This document shows, piece after piece, positions 3,534 through 20,000 of a stretch of DNA of 20,000 nt; within the stretch, counting starts at the first letter, position 1; the number at the start of each line of letters is the position of its first letter. The stretch is from an uncultured virus (IMG/VR IMGVR_UViG_3300025280_000029) (lineage: Duplodnaviria > Heunggongvirae > Uroviricota > Caudoviricetes): IMG/VR virus record IMGVR_UViG_3300025280_000029. One strand, written 5' to 3'. The notes under the pieces were generated by a model. It was given only the letters and a program-made list of their open reading frames with translations, ran no database searches and had not been told where the DNA came from. The position numbers and the translations under genes are program-made.

Positions 3534-4294
3534 TAAGTATAAAGATCGTCGGAGACGATAGCGGTATTCTCTCTTCTTTTGAAACGAGAGCGGAACTGAA
3601 TCAAGATGTTTGGGAGGGGAAAGCCCTTCGCCCTGAGGTATCCGAGAGGTTGGTTGAAATTGCTGAAGACTTTCTAGAAAGCCTAGGCATGGGTGTTTCC
3701 AATTGGACCTTGACTATTACTGGTTCTTTGGCAAATTATAATTGGTCTAAGTACTCCGACATTGACTTACACATCATTCTCCCCTTCGAAGATATTGACG
3801 AGAATGAAGAATTATTGAGAGAATTTTTTAATGCAAAGCAGGCCGTGTGGAATTCAAAGCACGACATTCTCGTAAAGGAACATCAAGTTGAGATATACGT
3901 GCAGAATGAATCGGAGCCTCACATTTCCACAGGCGTATATTCTATATCCGACAACAGCTGGTTGCTAGAGCCGGTAAGGGAATCATCTGACATAGACCGG
4001 CCCAGCGTAAGAATAAAGTCCGACACCCTGACCAAGCGAATAAGCCAGATAGAAAAAATGTTCAATGAGGGCAAAGATGAAGAAGTTTATTCTGAGGCTA
4101 TGATTCTCAAGGACAAGATAAAGAAGATGAGAAAATGTGGCTTAGACAAGGAGGGCATTTTCTCAGTCGAGAACATATCATTTAAGGTCTTAAGAAGAAA
4201 CGGTTCGATGGGTAGGCTTATTGGCTTAATCAATAGTTCGTATGATAATCTGATGAGCTTAGCGGAATCAGATGATCAAGATAAAGATAACTAA
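3530..4294 (+). CDS. Pol-beta-superfamily nucleotidyltransferase
   Basis: Signature hG[S]x9DhD is present as ITGSLANYNWSKYSDIDLHI, with a third acidic residue in VEIYVQ and a helical C-terminal region. Confidence 0.85.
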   Translation: MISIKIVGDDSGILSSFETRAELNQDVWEGKALRPEVSERLVEIAEDFLESLGMGVSNWTLTITGSLANYNWSKYSDIDLHIILPFEDIDENEELLREFFNAKQAVWNSKHDILVKEHQVEIYVQNESEPHISTGVYSISDNSWLLEPVRESSDIDRPSVRIKSDTLTKRISQIEKMFNEGKDEEVYSEAMILKDKIKKMRKCGLDKEGIFSVENISFKVLRRNGSMGRLIGLINSSYDNLMSLAESDDQDKDN

Positions 4295-4673
4295 CATGAA
4301 GATCAATGGCACAGCCGTCATAATTATTGACGCTGACGACCGCGTACTGCTGCTTCGCAGGGAGCCGACAAGCACATGGATGCCCGACAAGTGGGCCTTC
4401 CCGGGCGGGAAGATAGAGCCCGGCGAATCACCACCTGCCGCGGCCACTAGAGAGACAAAAGAAGAGACAGATCTAGATATAAGAACTTTGCAGGAATTGC
4501 AACCAAGCTATCAAGTACCAGTGTTTCTTTCCGAGGACTGGTCTGGTAAGGTGAAAATAAATGGAGAACATACTGATTTCTCCTGGGTTCACTTAAAGGA
4601 TGTTGCGAAATATGATACAGTACCACATATAGAAGCCCTTATTAGGAGAGCCTTAGATGTCAGAAAAAAGTGA
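4272..4673 (+). CDS. Nudix hydrolase
   Basis: Nudix box GGKIEPGESPPAAATRETKEETDL, preceded by VLLLRR and WAFP. Confidence 0.93.
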   Translation: MIKIKITNMKINGTAVIIIDADDRVLLLRREPTSTWMPDKWAFPGGKIEPGESPPAAATRETKEETDLDIRTLQELQPSYQVPVFLSEDWSGKVKINGEHTDFSWVHLKDVAKYDTVPHIEALIRRALDVRKK

Positions 4674-5031
4674 AATTGAAGAACTGAGTGAGGAGAGCCT
4701 TGCGAGCGAGTCTGCAGACTCTATCGAAGAGGTTGAAAAGCTCAAACCGAAGCCGCCACCGAGACTCGCCCCGGAGGGTATAAGAACATTTACTGTTTGT
4801 CGGCAGTTTGATGAGACTGGCGTCTCCGGCGAAGGAGTCGTAATTGAAGGTGTAACTCTGGCCACAGGGCAGTGTGTTGTACATTGGCTCTTTCCTCCCC
4901 CGCGCGGCGGCATTGCTATATTTGACTCAATGAACGACTTTACTACAGTTCATATCAAACCACACCCCAGCAATAGGACCATCATCACATACGACGACGG
5001 GGAGCAACTGGTCTTTGGCACCGATGAATAG
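4657..5031 (+). CDS. Conserved phage-type hypothetical protein
   Basis: GGAG RBS, acidic N-terminus, then RxxDETGVSGEGVVIEGV..G..VVHW core. Overlaps both neighbours. Confidence 0.7.
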   Translation: MSEKSEIEELSEESLASESADSIEEVEKLKPKPPPRLAPEGIRTFTVCRQFDETGVSGEGVVIEGVTLATGQCVVHWLFPPPRGGIAIFDSMNDFTTVHIKPHPSNRTIITYDDGEQLVFGTDE

Positions 5032-8787: not shown

Positions 8788-8816
8788 ACATTAAATATAT
8801 CTAATTGAGGGGGCAT

Positions 8817-9062
8817 ATGCTACAAAAACAAATGAAGTTTTGTGTTGGCGATTTGGTGAGGTTCGCCGGATGGTCCGATCCTGTCAACGTACTGGACGAT
8901 CATAAGATGGATCCGGGTACCCTTGGCATAGTCATACAAGTTACGCCACCCGTTGAGGGGGAGGGGTATCTTATGGTGGAAGAATATCTCGTTTGTTGGC
9001 CCCGCGACAGCGCGTTCTGGATGTATGAAAACGAAATGGAATTAGTTAACGGTGTCAGATAG
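8817..9062 (+). CDS. Small GDLV-family SH3/KOW-like protein
   Basis: FCVGDLVRF...LGIVI...YLVCW...MELVN. ATG 8817 lies behind GAGGGG. Confidence 0.75.
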   Translation: MLQKQMKFCVGDLVRFAGWSDPVNVLDDHKMDPGTLGIVIQVTPPVEGEGYLMVEEYLVCWPRDSAFWMYENEMELVNGVR

Positions 9063-9255
9063 AAACATTGAGGTGGGCGATCTAGTGTGCCTGTCGCAAC
9101 TTGAGCTTTCATTTTCTGAACAACCGACCGACCGTGGTCTAGTCATTGACATCGACAATGGTTTCTATTTGGTACATTGGTCGATTGGCCCCCCTACTCG
9201 GTCTTGGCAAACCATCGAGGAAATAATCAAATTAAATCAATATTGTCTTGATTAA
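9052..9255 (+). CDS. Small GDLV-family SH3/KOW-like protein
   Basis: IEVGDLVCL...RGLVI...YLVHW. Confidence 0.75.
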   Translation: MSDRNIEVGDLVCLSQLELSFSEQPTDRGLVIDIDNGFYLVHWSIGPPTRSWQTIEEIIKLNQYCLD

Positions 9256-9276
9256 TTCTGCGTTTCTAGTTATAAT
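9248..9276 (+). promoter_or_regulatory. Sigma70-like promoter
   Basis: TTGATT-17 bp-TATAAT. It sits very close to ATG 9278, so its relation to that start codon is uncertain. Confidence 0.5.
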
Positions 9277-9277
9277 A

Positions 9278-9517
9278 ATGGTAAAGAAGAGTAGTAAAAG
9301 TAGATATAACATAGGAGATCTGATAACAATATCAGAGGAATTAAGATCAATAACATCAGATTCCGAACCCCCCTTACTTGGGATAGTTTTTGGTGTTAGA
9401 GAATCCGGCAATTTTGATATGCATGAGTATCAAATTCTTTGGCAGGACCCCGGGGAGAATATGTCGAGCGAGGAACAGTGGTATCCAGAAATGTTTTTAC
9501 AAGGTGTTAAGAAATGA
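9278..9517 (+). CDS. Small GDLV-family SH3/KOW-like protein
   Basis: YNIGDLITI...LGIVF...YQILW. Start codon uncertain. Confidence 0.7.
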   Translation: MVKKSSKSRYNIGDLITISEELRSITSDSEPPLLGIVFGVRESGNFDMHEYQILWQDPGENMSSEEQWYPEMFLQGVKK

Positions 9518-9714
9518 AGAATAGAGAATTTAATTTAGGTGATCTGGTTAAACACGAGCTGAGTGGTTTGGGGATTATCATGGATAGGGCATATGTCGAG
9601 ACAACTGGCGGCGCGCGCTATGCCTATGGCTGGAGAGTATCTTTTCTAAATGGAGAAAACTTTAACGCGTCCAACGACTCGCTGATTCTCATGAACGAGA
9701 AAAAGAAAAAGTGA
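9514..9714 (+). CDS. Small GDLV-family SH3/KOW-like protein
   Basis: FNLGDLVKH...LGIIM...WRVSF. ATGA overlap. Confidence 0.75.
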   Translation: MKNREFNLGDLVKHELSGLGIIMDRAYVETTGGARYAYGWRVSFLNGENFNASNDSLILMNEKKKK

Positions 9715-9929
9715 TAGAAATTGGCGATCTTATCGCCTGGACTACCAACGCTAGCGACTCCGAACAGGTGGGTATCGTTATATCCGATATCACCCTCGAC
9801 CGCAACGCCGTCCGAGTGCGCTGGCTTAGGCCCTATGAGTGCAATGGTGATATCATCTGGGAAGACGAAGTGTGGACCTACAGATGTCGTATGCTCTCTA
9901 GATCTAGGCCGGCCAAAGCTTCAAGCTAA
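9711..9929 (+). CDS. Small GDLV-family SH3/KOW-like protein
   Basis: IEIGDLIAW...VGIVI...VRVRW. GTGA overlap. Confidence 0.75.
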   Translation: MIEIGDLIAWTTNASDSEQVGIVISDITLDRNAVRVRWLRPYECNGDIIWEDEVWTYRCRMLSRSRPAKASS

Positions 9930-9941
9930 ACAGTATATGGT

Positions 9942-10175
9942 ATGCCGTCCCTTCCGAAACTAAAAGCAGGAGATCTTGTAACGCACGTAAGTCAAACGTG
10001 GGTCCTGGGCACGGTCATCATGACAGCCATTACAATTGCCGGCCACTCTGTTTGCGAGGTCGTCGTCATAAGAGACAGACTAGATCCAGAAAATGTAGGA
10101 AAGGTTAAGTACCTTAATCGATGTTATTGGACCCTTGTTGAAGACTCAAAAAAAAATAAAACAAACCTTGACTAA
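9942..10175 (+). CDS. Small GDLV-family SH3/KOW-like protein
   Basis: LKAGDLVTH...LGTVI...CEVVV. Confidence 0.7.
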   Translation: MPSLPKLKAGDLVTHVSQTWVLGTVIMTAITIAGHSVCEVVVIRDRLDPENVGKVKYLNRCYWTLVEDSKKNKTNLD

Positions 10176-10196
10176 TATAGATACACGTGCTAATGT
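10168..10196 (+). promoter_or_regulatory. Sigma70-like promoter
   Basis: TTGACT-17 bp-TAATGT with TG before the -10 box, preceded by an A-rich tract. Confidence 0.55.
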
Positions 10197-10246
10197 AGAG
10201 GAGTGGTGAGTGACTTAAATACTCATCGGCCGAAAGGAGATAAATT

Positions 10247-10426
10247 ATGGAAGAGCTTGTATCTTATATTCGCGATGCACTGGAAGGCAAATGTTCCGCT
10301 CGTAGTCTCGATGACGAAGATGATTTTGAGGCAGTAATGGAAGAAATAACTCAGGCAATATTTGCTTGGGTTGATGATCATGGGGAAGCTGCGTTTGCTT
10401 ATGGTTCGCCTCGCGACGAATGGTGA
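10247..10426 (+). CDS. Hypothetical acidic protein (59 aa, not in ORF track)
   Basis: Strong AAAGGAGA RBS. Translates MEELVSYIRDALEGKCSARSLDDEDDFEAVMEEITQAIFAWVDDHGEAAFAYGSPRDEW*. Confidence 0.75.
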   Translation: MEELVSYIRDALEGKCSARSLDDEDDFEAVMEEITQAIFAWVDDHGEAAFAYGSPRDEW

Positions 10427-10433
10427 ACGAGAT

Positions 10434-10646
10434 ATGATCCGATGCAAAGTGGGCGACTTGGTAGAGTATCAAGGGCAGATAGGACTGGTCGTTGCGCACA
10501 AGCTATATGATGCGAAGCGTGACGGCTACTTAGTTAGATTTAGCAACGATTCCCATATGGGCACAGAGTTGCTTCTGCCGTCTGAAGTAAGAATTATCTA
10601 TATTGCAAAAAACATTGAAAACCCAGTTGACATGCTGAGTTTTTAA
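10434..10646 (+). CDS. Small GDLV-family SH3/KOW-like protein
   Basis: MIRCKVGDLVEY...IGLVV...YLVRF. Start reassigned to ATG 10434 after the stop of the 59-aa ORF. Confidence 0.75.
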   Translation: MIRCKVGDLVEYQGQIGLVVAHKLYDAKRDGYLVRFSNDSHMGTELLLPSEVRIIYIAKNIENPVDMLSF

Positions 10647-10680: not shown

Positions 10681-10757
10681 GGGCTGCTGGCCTAACGGGT
10701 AAGGCAAATGGCTTTTAACCATTCGATTTCTGAGTTCGAATCTCAGGCAGCTCACCA
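10681..10757 (+). tRNA. tRNA-Lys(UUU)
   Basis: Acceptor GGGCTGC/GCAGCTC, D stem GCCT/AGGC, anticodon arm AATGG-CTTTTAA-CCATT, T arm CTGAG-TTCGAAT-CTCAG, encoded CCA. Confidence 0.95.
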
Positions 10758-12881: not shown

Positions 12882-14339
12882 GTGCAAATAAAAATTACAA
12901 AACAATTAATATCAGAAGAGCTTATCAGTGAAATAACCTTCGCGTCGGCCGTGAACAACCTAGGCGGCAAAAAGATGCAGAAAGCTGTTATAGGGTGGAG
13001 TAATCGAGAACACCACGACGACTACGACGGAAGCCGTCTTGCCCACGATCCCAAGCTAATCGCTCGCCGAGTAAAAAAAGTGAAAATTTGGCTTCTTGAT
13101 ATTATTCCCGACGACTTAACCGACAATCAAAAGGGGCTAATTGTAACTTGGCTAGCTAGGCTCACAAGGGATTTATCTACGGGTTACATGACAAGTTTTC
13201 TTGGGGAGCATTACCCGGGCAACGACGCATGGAGCGACTTTGAAATGTTTTTCCACTATCAGCAGTTTATGTCCGAGAAGGATTTAAATAAAGTTGCAGA
13301 TCTAGAACACCTTGAAGAGATCGTCAACGCCGCCCGCCCGCAGATTGAAGCATATCAAGAGAAGCAATCTTATATGGATGCAGAAGAGGGCACTGAGGTA
13401 TTCCGCGACGACGAAGAGTGGTATATTGCAGCCCTCCACAACAAAGGAGCGGCTTGTGAGTTTGGCAAGGGGACAGATTGGTGTACGGCAGCACCCGGCC
13501 TAAATTATTTCGAAGAATACTATGAGGAAGATGATCCACTATTCTTCTTTCAAAAGAGGACCAACGACGAGCGTTGGCAATTCCACTATGGTTCAGATCA
13601 GTTTATGGATGAGGATGATCATCCAATCTCTAAAGATGAAACTGGACTTTTACACGACCTATTGATGCAAACAGATGCACCGACAAAGTATCCTATTTTA
13701 AGGAGTGTCGATGCGCGTTTTAAAGTTATGAATAGGTCGACTTCAGCGGCAGATTTGCATGCACTACTTGATTCTGAAGGAATGGATTACGGCCGCGCCA
13801 TTGCCATCGCAGCACATCCCGGCGCCGGGGACGAAACTCTTAAGGTTTTGATGGATATGGATCCAGTTAAGGAAGGCTGGATAGCTGTTTACCTTCCTGG
13901 CCACTCGCCGGCTGCGCATGGTACTAAATTGAAACAATCCATCGCTGAGAATCCCCACGCTAGCCCAGAAATTTTAGAACGATTGATGCGCCTGATGCGC
14001 GTCGCCGAAGAAGAGTTTGTGAAAAACAAACAAGACGCTGACCGGACCCGCCCGCTTCGCGGCTCGACCCGTGAATATTACAGGGCAATATATAAGGCTA
14101 TCGTATATAACCTTAATGTATCGACAGAGACGCTGAGAGATCTATATGCGTATTACAAGGAGACGAGCGGTGTACGCGGGACATTCATGCTGCTAGTGAT
14201 AGGGGAAAAGATCAGAGCCCGCGAAGAGGAGGGGAGAAATCTCACTCAAGTGGCTCTAGAGGACTATGCGTTTTCTCAAACAAAACTCCCGCCTAGTAAT
14301 GAAAACCTCCTCGCAAGATGGAAAAATATTATAAATTAG
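12882..14339 (+). CDS. Protein with PcfJ-like central domain and LRV-type helical repeats
   Basis: AACEFGKGTDWCTA...YFEEY...PLFFF...WQFH core. Repeat-like segments IAAHPGAGDETLKVL, IAENPHASPEILERL and IVYNLNVSTETLRDL. Confidence 0.6.
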   Translation: MQIKITKQLISEELISEITFASAVNNLGGKKMQKAVIGWSNREHHDDYDGSRLAHDPKLIARRVKKVKIWLLDIIPDDLTDNQKGLIVTWLARLTRDLSTGYMTSFLGEHYPGNDAWSDFEMFFHYQQFMSEKDLNKVADLEHLEEIVNAARPQIEAYQEKQSYMDAEEGTEVFRDDEEWYIAALHNKGAACEFGKGTDWCTAAPGLNYFEEYYEEDDPLFFFQKRTNDERWQFHYGSDQFMDEDDHPISKDETGLLHDLLMQTDAPTKYPILRSVDARFKVMNRSTSAADLHALLDSEGMDYGRAIAIAAHPGAGDETLKVLMDMDPVKEGWIAVYLPGHSPAAHGTKLKQSIAENPHASPEILERLMRLMRVAEEEFVKNKQDADRTRPLRGSTREYYRAIYKAIVYNLNVSTETLRDLYAYYKETSGVRGTFMLLVIGEKIRAREEEGRNLTQVALEDYAFSQTKLPPSNENLLARWKNIIN

Positions 14340-14341
14340 AG

Positions 14342-14370
14342 TTGCTATTCTGAGTATCCTGTGCTATTAT
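14342..14370 (+). promoter_or_regulatory. Sigma70-like promoter, probably giving a leaderless mRNA
   Basis: TTGCTA-17 bp-TATTAT with TG extension. ATG lies 6 nt after the -10 box and there is no SD. Confidence 0.6.
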
Positions 14371-14376
14371 ATACTC

Positions 14377-14574
14377 ATGGATGACGATTGCACTAAATTT
14401 CGCCTAGGCGCTCTAGTAGAACTTAAGTATTATCAAGGAAGCGTGTTGGCAGTTATACTGCAAAACCCCCCTTTTCTGTGGGACAGAATGAAAGTTCAAA
14501 TGATTGGCGAGCCCCGTCCCGAAATAGTAAAATGTAGCGATTGGGTACTGGCATGTACCCATCCCAAGAATTGA
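14377..14574 (+). CDS. Divergent GDLV-family small protein
   Basis: FRLGALVEL...LAVIL...MKVQM. Confidence 0.6.
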   Translation: MDDDCTKFRLGALVELKYYQGSVLAVILQNPPFLWDRMKVQMIGEPRPEIVKCSDWVLACTHPKN

Positions 14575-14595
14575 ATTAAAAAACGATAGTTTTAT

Positions 14596-14672
14596 GGGGG
14601 TGTATCCCAACCGGCAGAGGAAATCGACTTAAAATCGATCAAGTGTGGGTTCGAATCCCACCACCCCTACCA
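14596..14672 (+). tRNA. tRNA-Leu(UAA), short variable arm
   Basis: Acceptor GGGGGTG/CACCCCT, anticodon arm ATCGA-CTTAAAA-TCGAT, T arm GTGGG-TTCGAAT-CCCAC, discriminator A, encoded CCA. Confidence 0.93.
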
Positions 14673-14679
14673 AAATATT

Positions 14680-14865
14680 ATGAAAGACTATAAACCACAT
14701 ATTACAATGCTGAAGGTTGAACTAAAGAACAAAGACGAAAATGTTCTGACGGTAGATCTTAGCGATGACTTCGTTGAGTGGTTCAAGGTAACACACAATT
14801 TGAAACGATGGGCACCAAAGCAGTTTAAGAGTTGGCTCATCAAAGTATTAGAAGGCGACAAATGA
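14680..14865 (+). CDS. Hypothetical protein (61 aa)
   Basis: ORF starts 7 nt after the tRNA CCA and has an ATGA overlap with the next gene. Confidence 0.65.
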   Translation: MKDYKPHITMLKVELKNKDENVLTVDLSDDFVEWFKVTHNLKRWAPKQFKSWLIKVLEGDK

Positions 14866-15080
14866 AACAACATCACGGAATTAAAGTTGGCGATCTAGTG
14901 AAGTTTAAACATCATATATTGAAAGGCGATCATGGTCGTCTAGTCACGGAACTGTGGACTGACGAGGGCCACCTAGCCCAGTTCAAGCAAACAGTAGAGC
15001 ACATTCGCCTTTTAGGTGACTCCTCTGGTCGCTGGTATCTTGCGTCAGATTTCGATGTACTTTCAAGGGGAAGAGAATGA
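14862..15080 (+). CDS. Small GDLV-family SH3/KOW-like protein
   Basis: MKQHHGIKVGDLVKF...FDVLS. Start at ATG 14862. Confidence 0.75.
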   Translation: MKQHHGIKVGDLVKFKHHILKGDHGRLVTELWTDEGHLAQFKQTVEHIRLLGDSSGRWYLASDFDVLSRGRE

Positions 15081-15229
15081 GAACGTACGTGAACATGGAA
15101 AAAGAACAAATTGAAACAATCTTAGATATTTTTGTTGAGATTCAAGTACGCCGCGATCTCAAACCCAGCGAACAATACGTGAAAACTATTTTGCTTGAAG
15201 CACTTGACAGGGCGATCAATAGCTGGTAA
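15077..15229 (+). CDS. Hypothetical helical protein (50 aa, not in ORF track)
   Basis: ATGA overlap and AGGGGAAG RBS. Translates MRTYVNMEKEQIETILDIFVEIQVRRDLKPSEQYVKTILLEALDRAINSW*. Confidence 0.6.
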   Translation: MRTYVNMEKEQIETILDIFVEIQVRRDLKPSEQYVKTILLEALDRAINSW

Positions 15230-15232
15230 TAT
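15204..15232 (+). promoter_or_regulatory. Sigma70-like promoter for tRNA-Ile
   Basis: TTGACA-17 bp-TAATAT. Confidence 0.65.
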
Positions 15233-15305
15233 AAAGGAAGTTAGCTGAGTTAGCCGATGACGATCCTAAGAGCGAGCAAAGAACAAATTTACTGTTATAA
15301 CCTAT

Positions 15306-15382
15306 GCGCGTGTCAGCATAACAGTAAATGCTCCGATCTTATATATCGGCTGATGGGGGTGCAATTCCCTCCACGCGTACCA
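15306..15382 (+). tRNA. tRNA-Ile(UAU), atypical T loop
   Basis: Acceptor GCGCGTG/CACGCGT, D stem GCAT/ATGC, anticodon arm CCGAT-CTTATAT-ATCGG, T arm GGGGG-TGCAATT-CCCTC, discriminator A, encoded CCA. Confidence 0.88.
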
Positions 15383-15409
15383 TTTTATGGCCAATTGGGT
15401 TAACTCAAG

Positions 15410-15631
15410 ATGGTTACAAGAGAGTATATAGAATACGGAGCATCTTTCGAATCTGCTCTGTCCGAGATAAAGAAGGGGAATAATAAGTTAGAGAACCTAC
15501 AGTTTTTGCGCGTAACGTTTCACCCGATCAAAACTAGGTCGACTGAGCTTACGGATGAACAACTAGAACATGTGGTCGGAGGCCGAGCAGTTTGGCTCAA
15601 GCCTCTGCCCATTAGAGGGAGAGAAAGATGA
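15410..15631 (+). CDS. Small protein with a double-glycine leader-like motif
   Basis: ELTDEQLEHVVGG followed by a 15-aa basic tail. ATGA overlap with the next gene. Confidence 0.6.
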   Translation: MVTREYIEYGASFESALSEIKKGNNKLENLQFLRVTFHPIKTRSTELTDEQLEHVVGGRAVWLKPLPIRGRER

Positions 15632-15930
15632 GAGATCGATTGAACGAACCAATTGTGTGTGCTGACGGGTTTCGAATGTCCGTCCAAGGAAACGAGGCCG
15701 CTTACTGCGAGCCACGCCGAGACAATCAAGAAAAGTACATTCGGGTGGAGATTGGCTTTCCGTCTGAAGAAGAACCCCTCATTATGTCATATGCAGAAAA
15801 TCCTAGGGACCCAATCAACACTGTATATGGTTGGGTCCCTGTCCAAGTCGTTACAGACGTTATTGCGAAGCATGGGGGTATTGTAACGGGCGAAGTGCCC
15901 CCCGGCGTCGCGCGCCTTGAAGCCTCATGA
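15628..15930 (+). CDS. Conserved phage-type hypothetical protein (100 aa)
   Basis: GAGGGAG RBS. Motif-rich sequence C.DGF.MSVQ...YCEPR...VEIGFPS...TVYGWVP...KHGG. Confidence 0.8.
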   Translation: MRDRLNEPIVCADGFRMSVQGNEAAYCEPRRDNQEKYIRVEIGFPSEEEPLIMSYAENPRDPINTVYGWVPVQVVTDVIAKHGGIVTGEVPPGVARLEAS

Positions 15931-16130
15931 AAGATATTAAAGTTGGAGACTTAGTTAAGATTCTTCCTGGCACGGAAGACGCTCGCCTTCCTAAGAACAG
16001 AATGGGGGTGGTTATAAATAACGACCCCGGGAAGCAACCCGGCCAAACTACGACTTGGAATGTACATTTTATAAACAATGGGGTTTCAATGAGGTTTCAT
16101 GAAATGTTTATAGAAGTTATAAAGGAATGA
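15927..16130 (+). CDS. Small GDLV-family SH3/KOW-like protein
   Basis: IKVGDLVKI...MGVVI...WNVHF...IEVIKE. Confidence 0.8.
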   Translation: MKDIKVGDLVKILPGTEDARLPKNRMGVVINNDPGKQPGQTTTWNVHFINNGVSMRFHEMFIEVIKE

Positions 16131-16331
16131 ATGTTTGAAGTTGGAGATTTGGTTCGATTAGTTACTAGTCCAAGATATCCGGACAATAGAAATTTAGCAT
16201 TAATAGTTAAAGTTGTATGGGAGAGCCCCATCCCGCACGCGCGCCCCCGACGAGTGGCCTCGTATCGAGCGGCGCTAGTTGGGCACGAGGGTATACATGT
16301 AATATATTCGTGGGAAGTCGAGAGAATATAA
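16131..16331 (+). CDS. Small GDLV-family SH3/KOW-like protein
   Basis: MFEVGDLVRL...LALIV...EVERI. AAGGA RBS. Confidence 0.75.
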   Translation: MFEVGDLVRLVTSPRYPDNRNLALIVKVVWESPIPHARPRRVASYRAALVGHEGIHVIYSWEVERI

Positions 16332-17177: not shown

Positions 17178-17201
17178 TAGAGCATGGAGAGAGACAAAAA
17201 A

Positions 17202-18005
17202 ATGACTCAACTTGCGCAGAAGCTTCAGAGCGTTGTACAGAACCCCTTGCTATCTCAGCGAGATAGGGAGTTTGCTAGGTCCCTGGAAAAGTATTACGAG
17301 AAGAACAGGAAGCTATCTACTGGTCGGCGTCGCTGCTTGGCGCAACTAGAAGCCCGGGCAGAATCACTTAAGTCTGTTAACGTTGATCGGAAGACTCTAG
17401 ATCGTCTCAATCGGCTAGCAGCTAAAGTTGAAAGCAACGCATGGGCCACAGATTTTGTTACGTCCCTTACTGACAGAATTGGTTATGGACGGGAACTCAC
17501 TCCTGCGCAGATTAATCGACTAGGACAGATCGAGGAAGAGTATTCCGATGCAGCTGTTGAAAAGAAGGCAAAGTTTGCTCGCGAGTTTTCCCCCGAGATG
17601 CGCGCTAGAATGAATGTCGCCGCAGAATACTACGTTAACAATCCCCCCTACTATGGTGATCTAATTAAGCAGATTGGTGATGACGAGGATTTCATTCCTT
17701 CCGAGAAGCAGTGGAGATCAATGGTGGAGAACAAGTATGCCAGCAAAGTCTGGGAAAATTACACTTCTCCCCCCAAGTATCCAGTAGGTACATGCGTACA
17801 ATTGCGTAAAAGTTCGCGCGTCCTGTTCTGCCATCAGAGCAAGATGGGTTTTGTTGTCGAGGCCGGCCAAAAGGTGCCGGTTACATCGGCCAAGGGGGGG
17901 AAGATCTATCTCATCCTCCCGGTAGGAGAGATTACTCCCATTTATTGCGAGGAGCGCGATCTTAAACTATATAGAAAGAAGAAGAAAGAAGAAGATATCT
18001 TTTAG
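17202..18005 (+). CDS. Hypothetical protein: repeated helical F..SL....LS/T..Q/R unit plus C-terminal SH3/KOW-like domain
   Basis: FARSLEKYYEKNRKLSTGR and FVTSLTDRIGYGRELTPAQ units. C-terminal PKYPVGTCVQL...MGFVV...YLIL...ERDLK. GGAGAG RBS favours ATG 17202. Confidence 0.8.
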   Translation: MTQLAQKLQSVVQNPLLSQRDREFARSLEKYYEKNRKLSTGRRRCLAQLEARAESLKSVNVDRKTLDRLNRLAAKVESNAWATDFVTSLTDRIGYGRELTPAQINRLGQIEEEYSDAAVEKKAKFAREFSPEMRARMNVAAEYYVNNPPYYGDLIKQIGDDEDFIPSEKQWRSMVENKYASKVWENYTSPPKYPVGTCVQLRKSSRVLFCHQSKMGFVVEAGQKVPVTSAKGGKIYLILPVGEITPIYCEERDLKLYRKKKKEEDIF

Positions 18006-18015
18006 TACACAAGCT

Positions 18016-18180
18016 ACCGGAGGTACTATACATAAAATAAGGGTTCCTGTCTCAACGAACCCGTTCGCCCAAATTTGGTAAAAAGGAAATATATTTTTAA
18101 AGTAATGGGCAACCCGATAGAGGAGTTAACGAGAGGCTGGCAAGTCGGCAGCGAGGACACCCGACACCTCCGGTTTTTTT
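18016..18180 (+). ncRNA. Candidate structured RNA or terminator-like element
   Basis: 9-bp closing stem ACCGGAGGT/ACCTCCGGT encloses three smaller stems and is followed by a T7 run. Confidence 0.3.
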
Positions 18181-18258
18181 ATTTGACAATAAAGTTTTAG
18201 TCATTGACACAGACCCGAATCTCAGGCATAATATACGTATGATGAAACTTGGCGATTT
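18180..18258 (+). promoter_or_regulatory. Array-head promoter module, copy 1
   Basis: TATTTGACAATAAAGTTTT, then TTGACA(18204)-17 bp-CATAAT(18227), 6 nt, ATGATG. Colinear with copy 2 at 19038. Confidence 0.8.
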
Positions 18259-18421
18259 GGTAAGATGTATATATGCTAGCGGGCAGATCGGCTTAATTGT
18301 CGGTGTCGCGACAGACCATGCCCGACCCCTGTATAGTGTCCTCATCGAAGAGGAAGGTGGCAGGTCGCGCGCATACCGCTTCGTTGCAGAGCATCTGGAG
18401 TTATTAAGTGAAGCCGGGTGA
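18239..18421 (+). CDS. GDLV-family cassette protein
   Basis: MMKLGDLVRC...LELLSEAG. Confidence 0.8.
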   Translation: MMKLGDLVRCIYASGQIGLIVGVATDHARPLYSVLIEEEGGRSRAYRFVAEHLELLSEAG

Positions 18422-18626
18422 TCTAGTAAAATTGTGTGGCGCTCTAGACCCCACCGGCAAGGCACTGGGCATTGTAGTATGCCGGCATGCCTCCGAAGCC
18501 ACGCGCAGCGGCACTACCCTCGACACGGTTATCGATGTATATTGGCCAGAGGACGGACATCCCGCCGGCGGCTATAGGCGCACAGAACTATCAGAATTTT
18601 TGGAGGTTGTAAATGAAAGTCGGTGA
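18408..18626 (+). CDS. GDLV-family cassette protein
   Basis: MKPGDLVKL...LEVVNESR. 14-nt overlaps at both ends. Confidence 0.82.
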   Translation: MKPGDLVKLCGALDPTGKALGIVVCRHASEATRSGTTLDTVIDVYWPEDGHPAGGYRRTELSEFLEVVNESR

Positions 18627-18810
18627 CTTGGTGAAAGCAGCAGACAAAACGTTTTATCAGACCATATGGGAAGGTGCAGGTATCCTGCTTCGTCCCGACG
18701 AGGGGCGCACATATGTTGAGTGGTCGAATTCCTGGGAAATTCTCTGTGATGACGGTAAACGTCGAGTTATTGACGGCGAAGATATTGAGGTAATCGGTGC
18801 AACGCGATGA
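18613..18810 (+). CDS. GDLV-family cassette protein
   Basis: MKVGDLVKA...IEVIGATR. Confidence 0.82.
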   Translation: MKVGDLVKAADKTFYQTIWEGAGILLRPDEGRTYVEWSNSWEILCDDGKRRVIDGEDIEVIGATR

Positions 18811-19006
18811 TTCAGAATATCCCAACCTAGGCGATCTATTGTTTATGGAATGTTTGCCCGGGGGACCGTGCCTTTACCTGGGAAAGTATCGAGGTATAGG
18901 AAACCAATTATACTTCACAGTATATCACGGTTCTTCACAAACAATTATGAAGCTTCCAGATTATCACTTTATCGATATTGAGTTGGCCAAAGATTGTGGC
19001 TACTAG
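18797..19006 (+). CDS. Divergent GDLV-family cassette protein
   Basis: YPNLGDLLFM. GAGG RBS and 14-nt overlap with the previous gene. Confidence 0.7.
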   Translation: MQRDDSEYPNLGDLLFMECLPGGPCLYLGKYRGIGNQLYFTVYHGSSQTIMKLPDYHFIDIELAKDCGY

Positions 19007-19037
19007 AGAGAGTGTTAAGATCGGTGATTAAAACTTT

Positions 19038-19116
19038 TATTTGACAATAAAGTTTTCGGAATTGACTTCTTCTAAAATCTCAGGCATAATATATACATGA
19101 TGAAGATTGGCGATTT
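19038..19116 (+). promoter_or_regulatory. Array-head promoter module, copy 2
   Basis: TATTTGACAATAAAGTTTT, then TTGACT(19062)-17 bp-CATAAT(19085), 6 nt, ATGATG. Confidence 0.8.
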
Positions 19117-19321
19117 AGTTCAGGAAGTCGACCCCGAGCGACCGGAGGAGAAGTTTCCCATGGGAATCGTCATTCCTTTCCCGGCCGGCTTTCCCGAATC
19201 CGTCGGCCGCAGCGCCGCCGATTACGAAAACGGCGACATAGTGTGGGTTTCTTGGCCCCAGCTTGGCCAAGAAAACTGGTGCTATATAGATGAATTGAGG
19301 TTGCTGAATGAAAATCGGTGA
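19097..19321 (+). CDS. GDLV-family cassette protein
   Basis: MMKIGDLVQE...LRLLNENR. Confidence 0.85.
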   Translation: MMKIGDLVQEVDPERPEEKFPMGIVIPFPAGFPESVGRSAADYENGDIVWVSWPQLGQENWCYIDELRLLNENR

Positions 19322-19514
19322 CTTGGTAAAATACACCCCCGAAATGACAGGGCTGCAAAATTGTTTTGGAATCGTTATTGGTTTAAACGGAGGAGCGGTG
19401 GAAGTCCAGTGGACTGACCTTCACTCCGCCCCAGCTTTGACGACGCGCACGCGCGGCAAGGAAATCGGAGTCGAACTACCTGATTTCTTGGAGGTTGTAA
19501 ATGAAAATCGGTGA
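19308..19514 (+). CDS. GDLV-family cassette protein
   Basis: MKIGDLVKY...LEVVNENR. Confidence 0.85.
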   Translation: MKIGDLVKYTPEMTGLQNCFGIVIGLNGGAVEVQWTDLHSAPALTTRTRGKEIGVELPDFLEVVNENR

Positions 19515-19722
19515 CATTGTAACGGAAACGGGCACGTGGAGACTACGTACTCCGTACGTCGGTGAACTCGGCATTATAGTGCCACTCCCGGGCAGGTTGA
19601 CTGGAACACAGTTCGAACGGGAAGCTAATGACGGAAACATTGTTTGGGTTCACTGGACTGAATCTGGTGAGGACATCTGGTCCTTCGTTTCAGAGTTGGA
19701 GGTTGTAAGTGAAAATCGGTGA
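19501..19722 (+). CDS. GDLV-family cassette protein
   Basis: MKIGDIVTE...LEVVSENR. Confidence 0.85.
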   Translation: MKIGDIVTETGTWRLRTPYVGELGIIVPLPGRLTGTQFEREANDGNIVWVHWTESGEDIWSFVSELEVVSENR

Positions 19723-19909
19723 CTTGGTAAGATTTCGTTCCTCGTACCCGGATTGGCCTGTAGGAATAGTTGTAGAGGAATTTCATCTGAACTCTGTCGC
19801 TGTGGCACAACCATATACCGAACTGCGTGTTCAATGGCTAGACGATGACAACAAGAATGTTAGCTGGGTAAGGCGGAAAGACTTGGAGGTTGTAAGTGAA
19901 AGTCGGTGA
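19709..19909 (+). CDS. GDLV-family cassette protein
   Basis: MKIGDLVRF...LEVVSESR. Confidence 0.85.
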   Translation: MKIGDLVRFRSSYPDWPVGIVVEEFHLNSVAVAQPYTELRVQWLDDDNKNVSWVRRKDLEVVSESR

Positions 19910-20000
19910 CTTGGTAATGAAGGCCAAAACCAGCGGTGTCCGCGATGCGGCGGGTTTTGGAATTGTGATAGATACTGTGTATAAATCGGGCGGTCAGTAC
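19896..20000 (+). CDS. GDLV-family cassette protein, 3'-truncated by window edge
   Basis: GTG 19896 lies within the junction repeat. Translates MKVGDLVMKAKTSGVRDAAGFGIVIDTVYKSGGQY... Confidence 0.8.
   Translation, partial: MKVGDLVMKAKTSGVRDAAGFGIVIDTVYKSGGQY

Follow-up and report, generated by a model that had tools for sequence, protein, structure and literature searches.

The end of the window, by which we mean the whole 20,000-nucleotide (nt) stretch analysed here from the uncultured caudovirus IMGVR_UViG_3300025280_000029, carries two promoter-led chains of paralogous mini-genes whose products are predicted to be SH3-like, and the sequence shared by successive genes has very probably guided the homologous exchange of whole genes among related phages. 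This shared sequence is a 35-bp repeat that a sequence-only reading of the stretch had compared with the repeats of an integron or of a CRISPR (clustered regularly interspaced short palindromic repeats) array with coding spacers. The repeat is an element of neither kind; it is a joint, at which one gene in a tandem of paralogs of 60–74 amino acids (aa), hereafter cassettes, meets the next. The region would consist of two operon-like chains, each driven by a conserved sigma-70-type promoter block, and ordinary homologous recombination within a joint would delete, insert or replace whole genes with their reading frames unbroken. Comparisons among relatives show what appear to be the marks of repeated exchange at this joint.

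Nine open reading frames (ORFs) of 60–74 aa lie head to tail in two chains, the first at 18239-19006 and the second running from 19097 to the window end. All are on the + strand, and the frame shifts by +1 at each joint. Most begin M-K-(V/I/L/P)-G-D-L-V, and the internal ones mostly end L-E-V-V-(S/N)-E-(S/N)-R. The features of the two chains, and of their diverged relatives elsewhere in the window, are the following (G001 is a longer, near-identical viral record described below).

18177..18232, + strand, promoter block A, with an AT-rich 8-bp inverted repeat around the first TTGACA and a scan score of 11/12
18204-18209 and 18227-18232, + strand, hexamers of promoter block A, -35 TTGACA and -10 CATAAT, with a 17-nt spacer
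18239..18421, + strand, cassette A1, 60 aa, opening chain A without a Shine-Dalgarno sequence, its start 6 nt past the -10 hexamer
18395..18429, + strand, diverged joint A1/A2, coding L-E-L-L-S-E-A-G-stop over V-K-P-G-D-L-V
18408..18626, + strand, cassette A2, 72 aa, GTG start; its G001 counterpart is in alignment A1
18600..18634, + strand, joint A2/A3, 1 mismatch to the consensus
18613..18810, + strand, cassette A3, 65 aa, from the ORF list
18784..18818, + strand, diverged joint A3/A4, 14-nt overlap retained
18797..19006, + strand, cassette A4, 69 aa, closing chain A, with a divergent N-terminus and without the S/N-E-S/N-R tail
19035..19090, + strand, promoter block B, -35 TTGACT at 19062-19067 and -10 CATAAT at 19085-19090
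19097..19321, + strand, cassette B1, 74 aa, opening chain B
19295..19329, + strand, joint B1/B2, 6 mismatches to the consensus (G001 59247)
19308..19514, + strand, cassette B2 (group g6), 68 aa
19488..19522, + strand, joint B2/B3, at most 3 mismatches to the consensus
19501..19722, + strand, cassette B3, 73 aa
19696..19730, + strand, joint B3/B4, 0 mismatches
19709..19909, + strand, cassette B4 (group g18), 66 aa, modelled as an SH3-like barrel
19883..19917, + strand, joint B4/B5, 0 mismatches
19896..20000, + strand, cassette B5 (group g1), truncated at the end of the window; 67 aa in G001
8805..10646, + strand, seven more diverged members of the superfamily, their ORFs overlapping by 4 to 11 nt or separated by short gaps, without the 14-nt joint
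14377..16331, + strand, four more diverged members, starting at 14377, 14832, 15927 and 16131

Matches to the consensus 35-mer with at most 3 mismatches begin at 18600, 19488, 19696 and 19883 (four copies, against none in 200 shuffles), the copy at 19295 lies further from it, and diverged copies at 18395 and 18784 can be seen by inspection of the sequence; the copies and the spacings first described (205, 184, 193, 208 and 187 nt) stand. Each copy combines two conserved protein ends, LEVV-S/N-E-S/N-R-stop at the C-terminus of one gene and M-K-V/I-G-D-L-V at the N-terminus of the next, with a GGAGG Shine-Dalgarno sequence inside it. GGAGG lies 6 nt 5′ of the ATG or GTG start in every copy, and the upstream TGA falls 11–13 nt into the downstream ORF to give a 14-nt overlap, so the ORFs agree with the earlier proposal that the repeat supplies the ribosome site and start of one gene and the stop of the other. 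The last strand of gene n would thereby carry the Shine-Dalgarno sequence of gene n+1, and the start of gene n+1 with its first four and two-thirds codons would, in the other frame, provide the tail of gene n. Such an anatomy suggests tight translational coupling with no intergenic space. Every subfamily member has the same joint, and 25–35 nt of homology are therefore shared by any two of them.

The array passes the window edge, as had been anticipated, and continues in G001, a viral record of 71,601 nt that matches the window at 99.94% over 20,000 nt (12 mismatches, 1 gap). There, chain B extends by two canonically overlapped genes and then by three family genes with other joints, to 61208; beyond it, at 62703-63642, the same joint links the five genes of a second chain. 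A repeat count on this longer contig, a check that had been proposed, gave 10 joints that differ from the consensus at no more than 8 positions. About 30 family members are recognized in G001 by a loose motif and 16 by a strict codon pattern, 11/16 of the latter with the canonical upstream overlap. A profile-profile comparison of alignments A1 and A3 (probability 96.8%, E 2.3e-10) assigns the diverged members at 8805-10646 and 14377-16331 to this superfamily as well. Between the stop of A4 and promoter block B, at 19017-19034, lies an apparent relic of a joint or cassette start that retains ATCGGTGA of the joint core; it reads as a cassette truncated where the promoter block starts.

The earlier statement that the sequences between repeats are largely unrelated is true of the DNA and fails for the proteins. 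Alignment A1 holds 58 canonical cassettes, which share the consensus MKVGDLV...GI...V.W...LEVxSESR and differ greatly in length and sequence from one anchor to the next; the window cassette is homologous to the other 57 at 21-44% identity. An AlphaFold2 model built from this alignment for the cassette at 19709-19906 has five strands, with a mean predicted local distance difference test score (pLDDT) of 91.7 and a predicted template-modelling score (pTM) of 0.75. Its nearest folds in Foldseek are HspQ, the UHRF1 tandem Tudor domain, PWWP and PetP, at template-modelling (TM) scores of 0.54-0.72 and E-values of 0.015 or weaker; the top matches in BFVD, a library of viral structures, are viral proteins without a name (best E 5e-4, TM 0.77). 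The model and these neighbours bear out, at the level of fold, the initial guess of SH3/KOW-like proteins, and we predict with confidence that the cassettes are SH3-like five-stranded barrels of ~60 residues. Each gene would thus encode a β-barrel of ~60-75 aa with hypervariable loops around a conserved core, the latter made up of the N-terminal strand M-K-V-G-D-L-V, a G-I-V motif, a Trp and the C-terminal strand L-E-V-V/I.

Named families barely touch these proteins. None of 23 cassettes reached the Pfam gathering score (PWWP came closest, with 21.2 bits where 25.6 are needed), just 2/23 had weak PHROG matches (E ~2e-3), and in a family scan of the 58 members of alignment A1 each of the eight families listed was matched by one member only. 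The Atlas returned unnamed viral clusters only, with the nearest named ones (DsrB, R67 DHFR, SH3-C_UBE2O) scoring <0.9, and cassette B4 matched none of 50,697 phage records in tblastn at E 1e-3. A word-indexed search yielded 342 matches, all unnamed or ‘hypothetical’, and an exhaustive search 5,744 representative clusters at E ≤1e-3. Neither the family nor the joint is described in the literature searched, a coverage that stops short of subscription journals. The loci that we fetched hold 628 unique cassettes, 410 of them with the canonical 14-nt overlap. Across cassette interiors, the ratio of nonsynonymous to synonymous substitution rates (dN/dS) was 0.07-0.46 in 20/20 evaluable ortholog pairs (21 were tried, one with saturated synonymous divergence, dS). 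This purifying selection implies that the cassettes are expressed, constrained proteins and not filler.

Exchange of cassettes becomes visible among more distant relatives. A search with cassette g18 as the probe gathered 79 metagenome loci, and the exact joint core is found in 14 viral contigs. The left neighbour of g18 differs in 5/5 relatives, being a cassette in G001, a promoter block in L029 (where g18 lies directly 3′ of it) and three other cassettes in L030, L031 and L032, and the right neighbours are of three kinds. In L032, the cassette directly 5′ of g18 is a homologue of B1 at 61% identity. Loci L013, L026, L014, L020 and L015/L024 have a collinear backbone broken by insertions, deletions and replacements of whole cassettes. 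Over all loci, members of ortholog pairs in different loci had a downstream neighbour of the same group in 19/195 cases and an upstream one in 19/121, and at 75-90% interior identity the corresponding counts were 4/20 and 7/21, with ortholog pairs inside large groups not independent. Between L013 and L026, 13/22 ends of homology blocks fall within -15 to +27 nt of a cassette start, against an expectation of about one-quarter by our own estimate (a ~50-nt window per ~190-nt unit). In the alignments, a single cassette of 96% identity stands between neighbours that are unrelated on both sides, and it is inside the joint that identity sets in and breaks off; the extra cassette of L026 has the joint on either side as a direct repeat. 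Over 4,065 nt, loci L015 and L024 agree at 99.78%, the identity starting exactly at a joint upstream of which the cassettes differ in type. Adjacent cassettes in one genome pair range in dS from 0.045 to 2.2, a width expected if each cassette has its own history. In the relatives, homology switches on and off inside the joint and order is poorly conserved, in agreement with the claims that whole cassettes are gained, lost and swapped and that the joint is a universal linker in which a crossover leaves both genes intact. The original inference of modular recombination is supported in part, as to cassette exchange at the joint; its likeness to CRISPR or integron arrays and the idea of recent turnover in this phage are not.

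Several observations weigh against this account. The window, G001 and L027 (99.69% over 7,641 nt) are collinear, near-identical records with identical arrays and not one cassette change among them, and recent turnover in this phage thus finds no support. The comparative evidence consists of metagenome assemblies only, in which misjoining at the shared 35-nt repeat is possible; against misassembly, the cassette orders are reproduced by independent records. Breakpoints at gene boundaries are also expected when selection for intact genes follows illegitimate recombination. Matches of the modelled fold to solved structures are generic, with weak E-values (≥0.015), and translational coupling, promoter activity and protein function are all things that we infer. 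Codon use at the joint, finally, exceeds what coding demands. Joint Leu codons in G001 are TTG in 7/10 cases against 0.08 in cassette interiors, joint Val codons are GTA in 9/11 against 0.20, and across 17 genomes the joint and interior frequencies are 0.64 vs 0.33 for TTR and 0.60 vs 0.19 for GTA. Codons just outside the overlap are thus over-uniform, which leaves some constraint at the RNA or DNA level unexplained.

These points bear on a quite unlikely competitor of guided exchange, in which the joint is conserved by coding and translation only and has no causal role, the differences among relatives arising from illegitimate recombination plus selection, or partly from misassembly. Much of the conservation fits it. 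Over 628 cassette starts, GGAGG at -11 to -7, the start codon and the overlap are conserved family-wide, and the free third positions vary (T 0.37 at -5, A 0.52 at -2, T 0.63 at +14, G 0.54 at +17 and A 0.60 at +20). Starts without an upstream overlap have GGT in 61% of cases vs 100% with one, C at +8 in 42% vs 77% and ATG in 89% vs 52%; the positions relaxed in non-overlapped starts are exactly those that the overlap forces. A tail of the S/N-E-S/N-R type ends 84% of the 284 cassettes that are overlapped downstream vs 19% of the 344 others, and to a large extent the tail is thus the N-terminus of the following gene seen in the other frame. What the ends of the proteins, the ribosome-binding GGAGG and the stop codon require accounts for most of the conservation of the repeat. 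When synonymous sites were checked for conservation beyond dual-frame coding, as had been suggested, no special conservation of the DNA emerged at the free sites, and some excess codon bias was left over.

Contigs built from short reads also lend weight to this coding-only explanation. Logan contigs from four runs break at joints, where loose ends agree poorly (0.42-0.60); the 15 joints listed, of 77, all end in joint repeats with sides 21-34 nt inside the repeat, and they are therefore indistinguishable from the cassettes of other phages. Conserved boundary sequences are, moreover, absent at most mosaic junctions of other phages according to a text from the Hatfull laboratory (PMC3029335). 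Set against this, every examined breakpoint lies inside the shared joint and not just near a gene end, the joint direct repeat that flanks the extra L026 cassette is the classical footprint of unequal homologous exchange, and the same orders recur in independent records.

The leftover codon bias has a simple candidate cause. Free-site similarity is only 0.48 within genomes vs 0.416 between them (0/500 permutations reach the difference), TTG/TTA heterogeneity among genomes is not significant (p 0.098) and use of GAC follows the codon bias of cassette interiors (rho 0.53), all as the coding-only explanation would have it. The bias at joints is common to the genomes and not genome-specific, and the excess uniformity is stronger within G001 than family-wide. 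Concerted evolution by gene conversion was considered and is unsupported, given the TTG/TTA and GAC results. A constraint on translation close to the start is the simplest reading of the bias. It is rather doubtful, if enticing, that the joint is instead kept uniform because uniformity makes the cassettes interchangeable, the whole forming a recombinase-free combinatorial library of SH3-like binders in large marine phages. If so, the codon excess outside the overlap would be a trace of selection for recombination compatibility, and the thousands of cassette types in the pool could each be pasted behind any other and expressed from a built-in ribosome site.

As a separate observation on codons, the window has three transfer RNA (tRNA) genes, Lys(UUU) at 10681-10757, Leu(UAA) at 14596-14672 and Ile(UAU) at 15306-15382, which read AAA, UUR and AUA. 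AAA and UUR are the preferred codons of the joint (Lys at codon 2, Leu at codon 6), and TTG is rare (0.08) in G001 interiors.

The layout of repeats and variable units, with turnover at the level of the cassette, could also be taken for a dedicated system of the integron, shufflon or CRISPR type, in which a recombinase or nuclease recognizes the repeat, possibly by way of circles of ~200 bp. The excess codon uniformity at the joints of G001 would suit such a system, and mini-circles are documented for the PeSL elements of T4-type phages (PMC2839356). We consider it very unlikely. Of the 51 larger ORFs of G001 compared with PHROGs, and of 18 ORFs from the arrays and their surroundings compared with Pfam, none matched a family of integrases, invertases, transposases, Cas proteins or reverse transcriptases, a result that accords with the first impression that no recombinase is visible. 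The repeats are translated sequence. The joint also lacks an inverted repeat or hairpin, the five window joints folding no better than shuffles (z = 0.89, -0.39, 0.16, 1.98 and 0.45; folding used RNA parameters and not those of single-stranded DNA). As G001 is only ~39% of a genome, an enzyme encoded at a distance would still have room.

The comparison with known arrays fails in detail as well. A CRISPR array has non-coding repeats and foreign, non-coding spacers, and here repeats and ‘spacers’ both lie in ORFs; no cas genes occur in the two ORF sets just named, the record being ~39% of the genome. What the array would have in common with an integron is promoterless cassettes in one orientation behind a common, predicted promoter, exchanged as units. 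It differs in that neither ORF set has an IntI, the cassette boundaries fold into no attC-like hairpin (z -0.39 to 1.98 at the five window joints) and all cassettes belong to one paralog family. With coding repeats, paralogous spacers under purifying selection, no hairpin and none of these enzymes in the ORFs scanned, the likeness to either system is unsupported.

One further reading takes each chain as a single poly-SH3 protein made by programmed +1 frameshifting at the joints. It would match the +1 rotation of frame at every joint, and 5 of the best 150 database representatives are indeed two-domain proteins (P0121, P0125, P0133, P0155 and P0204). On inspection, P0121 is an in-frame fusion across the joint, P0133 and P0155 are two domains connected by a linker, and P0125 looks like a gene call that opens in the upstream cassette. 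These rare fusions are predicted from sequence to be in frame at the DNA level and not products of frameshifting. Each joint has its own well-spaced GGAGG and ATG or GTG start, the first cassettes stand alone behind promoters and the overlap contains no visible slippery heptamer, all of which makes a frameshifted polyprotein extremely improbable.

Guided exchange at the joint, the reading that we prefer, has closer precedents in phage mosaicism. PeSL (promoter-early stem-loop) cassettes undergo modular shuffling in hyperplastic regions of T4-type phages (Arbiol et al. 2010, PMC2839356; Comeau et al. 2014, PMC4122927), and there too short conserved units lie between small, non-essential early genes, indels and replacements are bounded by the unit and no dedicated recombinase takes part. 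As characterized in PMC2839356, the PeSL motif has an AT-rich region, a sigma-70-like promoter and a stem-loop, with a Shine-Dalgarno sequence and start after them, a description that suits our promoter blocks only and not the joint. Motif-bounded indels of the PeSL type do occur at promoter blocks between L029 and G001, and the coding joint behaves in the same manner. The joint differs from PeSL elements in that it codes in two frames inside operons and is neither intergenic nor regulatory, and in that the cassettes it links are mutually homologous. The carrier, too, is not a T4-type phage, and no T4 core gene is named among its PHROG matches.

Short conserved boundary (‘linker’) sequences are a model for the mosaicism of lambdoid phages and mycobacteriophages, as set out in PMC3029335. 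The array resembles that model in that homologous recombination at short gene-boundary sequences swaps whole genes; it departs from it in that such linkers are rare there, at few junctions, and here hundreds of cassettes (410/628) have one and the same joint, which coding in two frames enforces.

We place the region with known phage genome plasticity, here with a dual-coding gene junction as the linker and a large uncharacterised protein family as the cargo.

For the proteins, a comparison can be made with T4 GoF, MotB.1 and Frd.2, small SH3/LSm-like early proteins (Kim et al. 2025, PMC12152347). Like the predicted cassette products, these are small early phage barrels of unknown function expanded as paralogs. 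The abstract of that paper describes no 14-nt overlap joint, and one window cassette, searched by sequence against cultured-phage records, found no match.

At the head of each chain stands a conserved block of ~60 nt in which an AT-rich 8-bp inverted repeat is followed by a -35 (TTGACA or TTGACT) and, after a spacer of 17 nt, by CATAAT. The nine copies, seven from G001 and two from L029, align with 36 invariant columns and score 10-11 of 12 at -35/-10, and some have a GC stem-loop 3′ of the -10. A consensus sigma-70 site precedes each chain, and no comparable conserved block lies inside the chains. Rearrangements between L029 and G001 are bounded by promoter blocks, with ~4.6 kb absent between blocks. 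In four of four blocks that run straight into a cassette, an ATG without a Shine-Dalgarno sequence lies 6 nt past the -10, and on this spacing each chain may begin with a gene translated from leaderless mRNA. The promoter-to-cassette runs are these.

18227-18241 and 19085-19099, window
10452-10590, locus L009 (L009:10452-10590)
1860-1990, locus L029 (L029:1860-1990)

The gap at 18016-18174, between a 273-aa gene and promoter block A, has at its end a stem of 9 bp, CCGGAGGU...ACCUCCGG, and then a U run. It folds with z = -1.82, and 11/200 shuffles fold equally well; an Rfam scan of the window returned the three tRNAs only, with no match in the gap. Either a small structured RNA or a long terminator may lie here. 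The 273-aa gene itself (17184-18005), 5′ of the array, found no relatives in viral contigs; the C-terminal ~90 residues of its product are 45% identical to a free-standing 91-aa protein at L029:197-472, which suggests a small domain that occurs both fused and alone.

The carrier belongs to an uncultured lineage of large phages. Its record G001, estimated at 39% of the genome, encodes a DnaE-like polymerase, a DnaB-like helicase, a ribonucleotide reductase, GroEL, two ClpP-like proteases, Hsp20, endonuclease VII and a PurZ-like enzyme. The polymerase is only ~30% identical to those of cultured phages, a distance that places the phage outside the T4 type. The sequencing runs that contain the stretch are marine metagenomes. 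The matches in G001 that relate to recombination or nucleases are endonuclease VII, an exonuclease and the single-stranded DNA-binding protein SSB, all far from the array. An ORF at L011:12630-13625 (G001 24630-25625) matches the PHROG family of PurZ-type adenylosuccinate synthetases at E 6e-69, a hint that the phage may replace adenine with 2-aminoadenine in its DNA.

The genes around the array encode a zinc-finger protein, an ATPase of the AAA_5 (MoxR-like) family and a metallopeptidase/VWA protein of the DUF2201 type. The last two lie in that order 3′ of the second chain, and the ATPase is conserved in L029 at 59% identity. PHROGs calls the DUF2201 ORF, ~3 kb beyond the chain, an HNH endonuclease, a label for which Pfam gives no support. 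The genes are located as follows.

13543-16307, locus L009 (L009:13543-16307; G001 65542-68306), AAA_5 ATPase and DUF2201/VWA pair
3635-4705, locus L029 (L029:3635-4705), conserved AAA_5 ATPase

The proteins of the array are most likely early-expressed binding modules directed against host or phage targets, a reading suggested by the type of promoter, the fold and the rapid turnover. The mosaic nature of phage genomes is well established, but conserved linkers that explain clean gene-by-gene exchange are rarely found, and the joint described here would be an unusually clear natural example, in which expression is kept intact. It also draws attention to a very large family without a Pfam or PHROG counterpart or a name in its source databases, whose 5,744 clusters would be SH3-like barrels with variable loops. 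The heavy investment of this lineage, 16 members or more by the strict pattern in the 71.6 kb of G001, makes these small proteins candidates for host-targeting or counter-defence binders.

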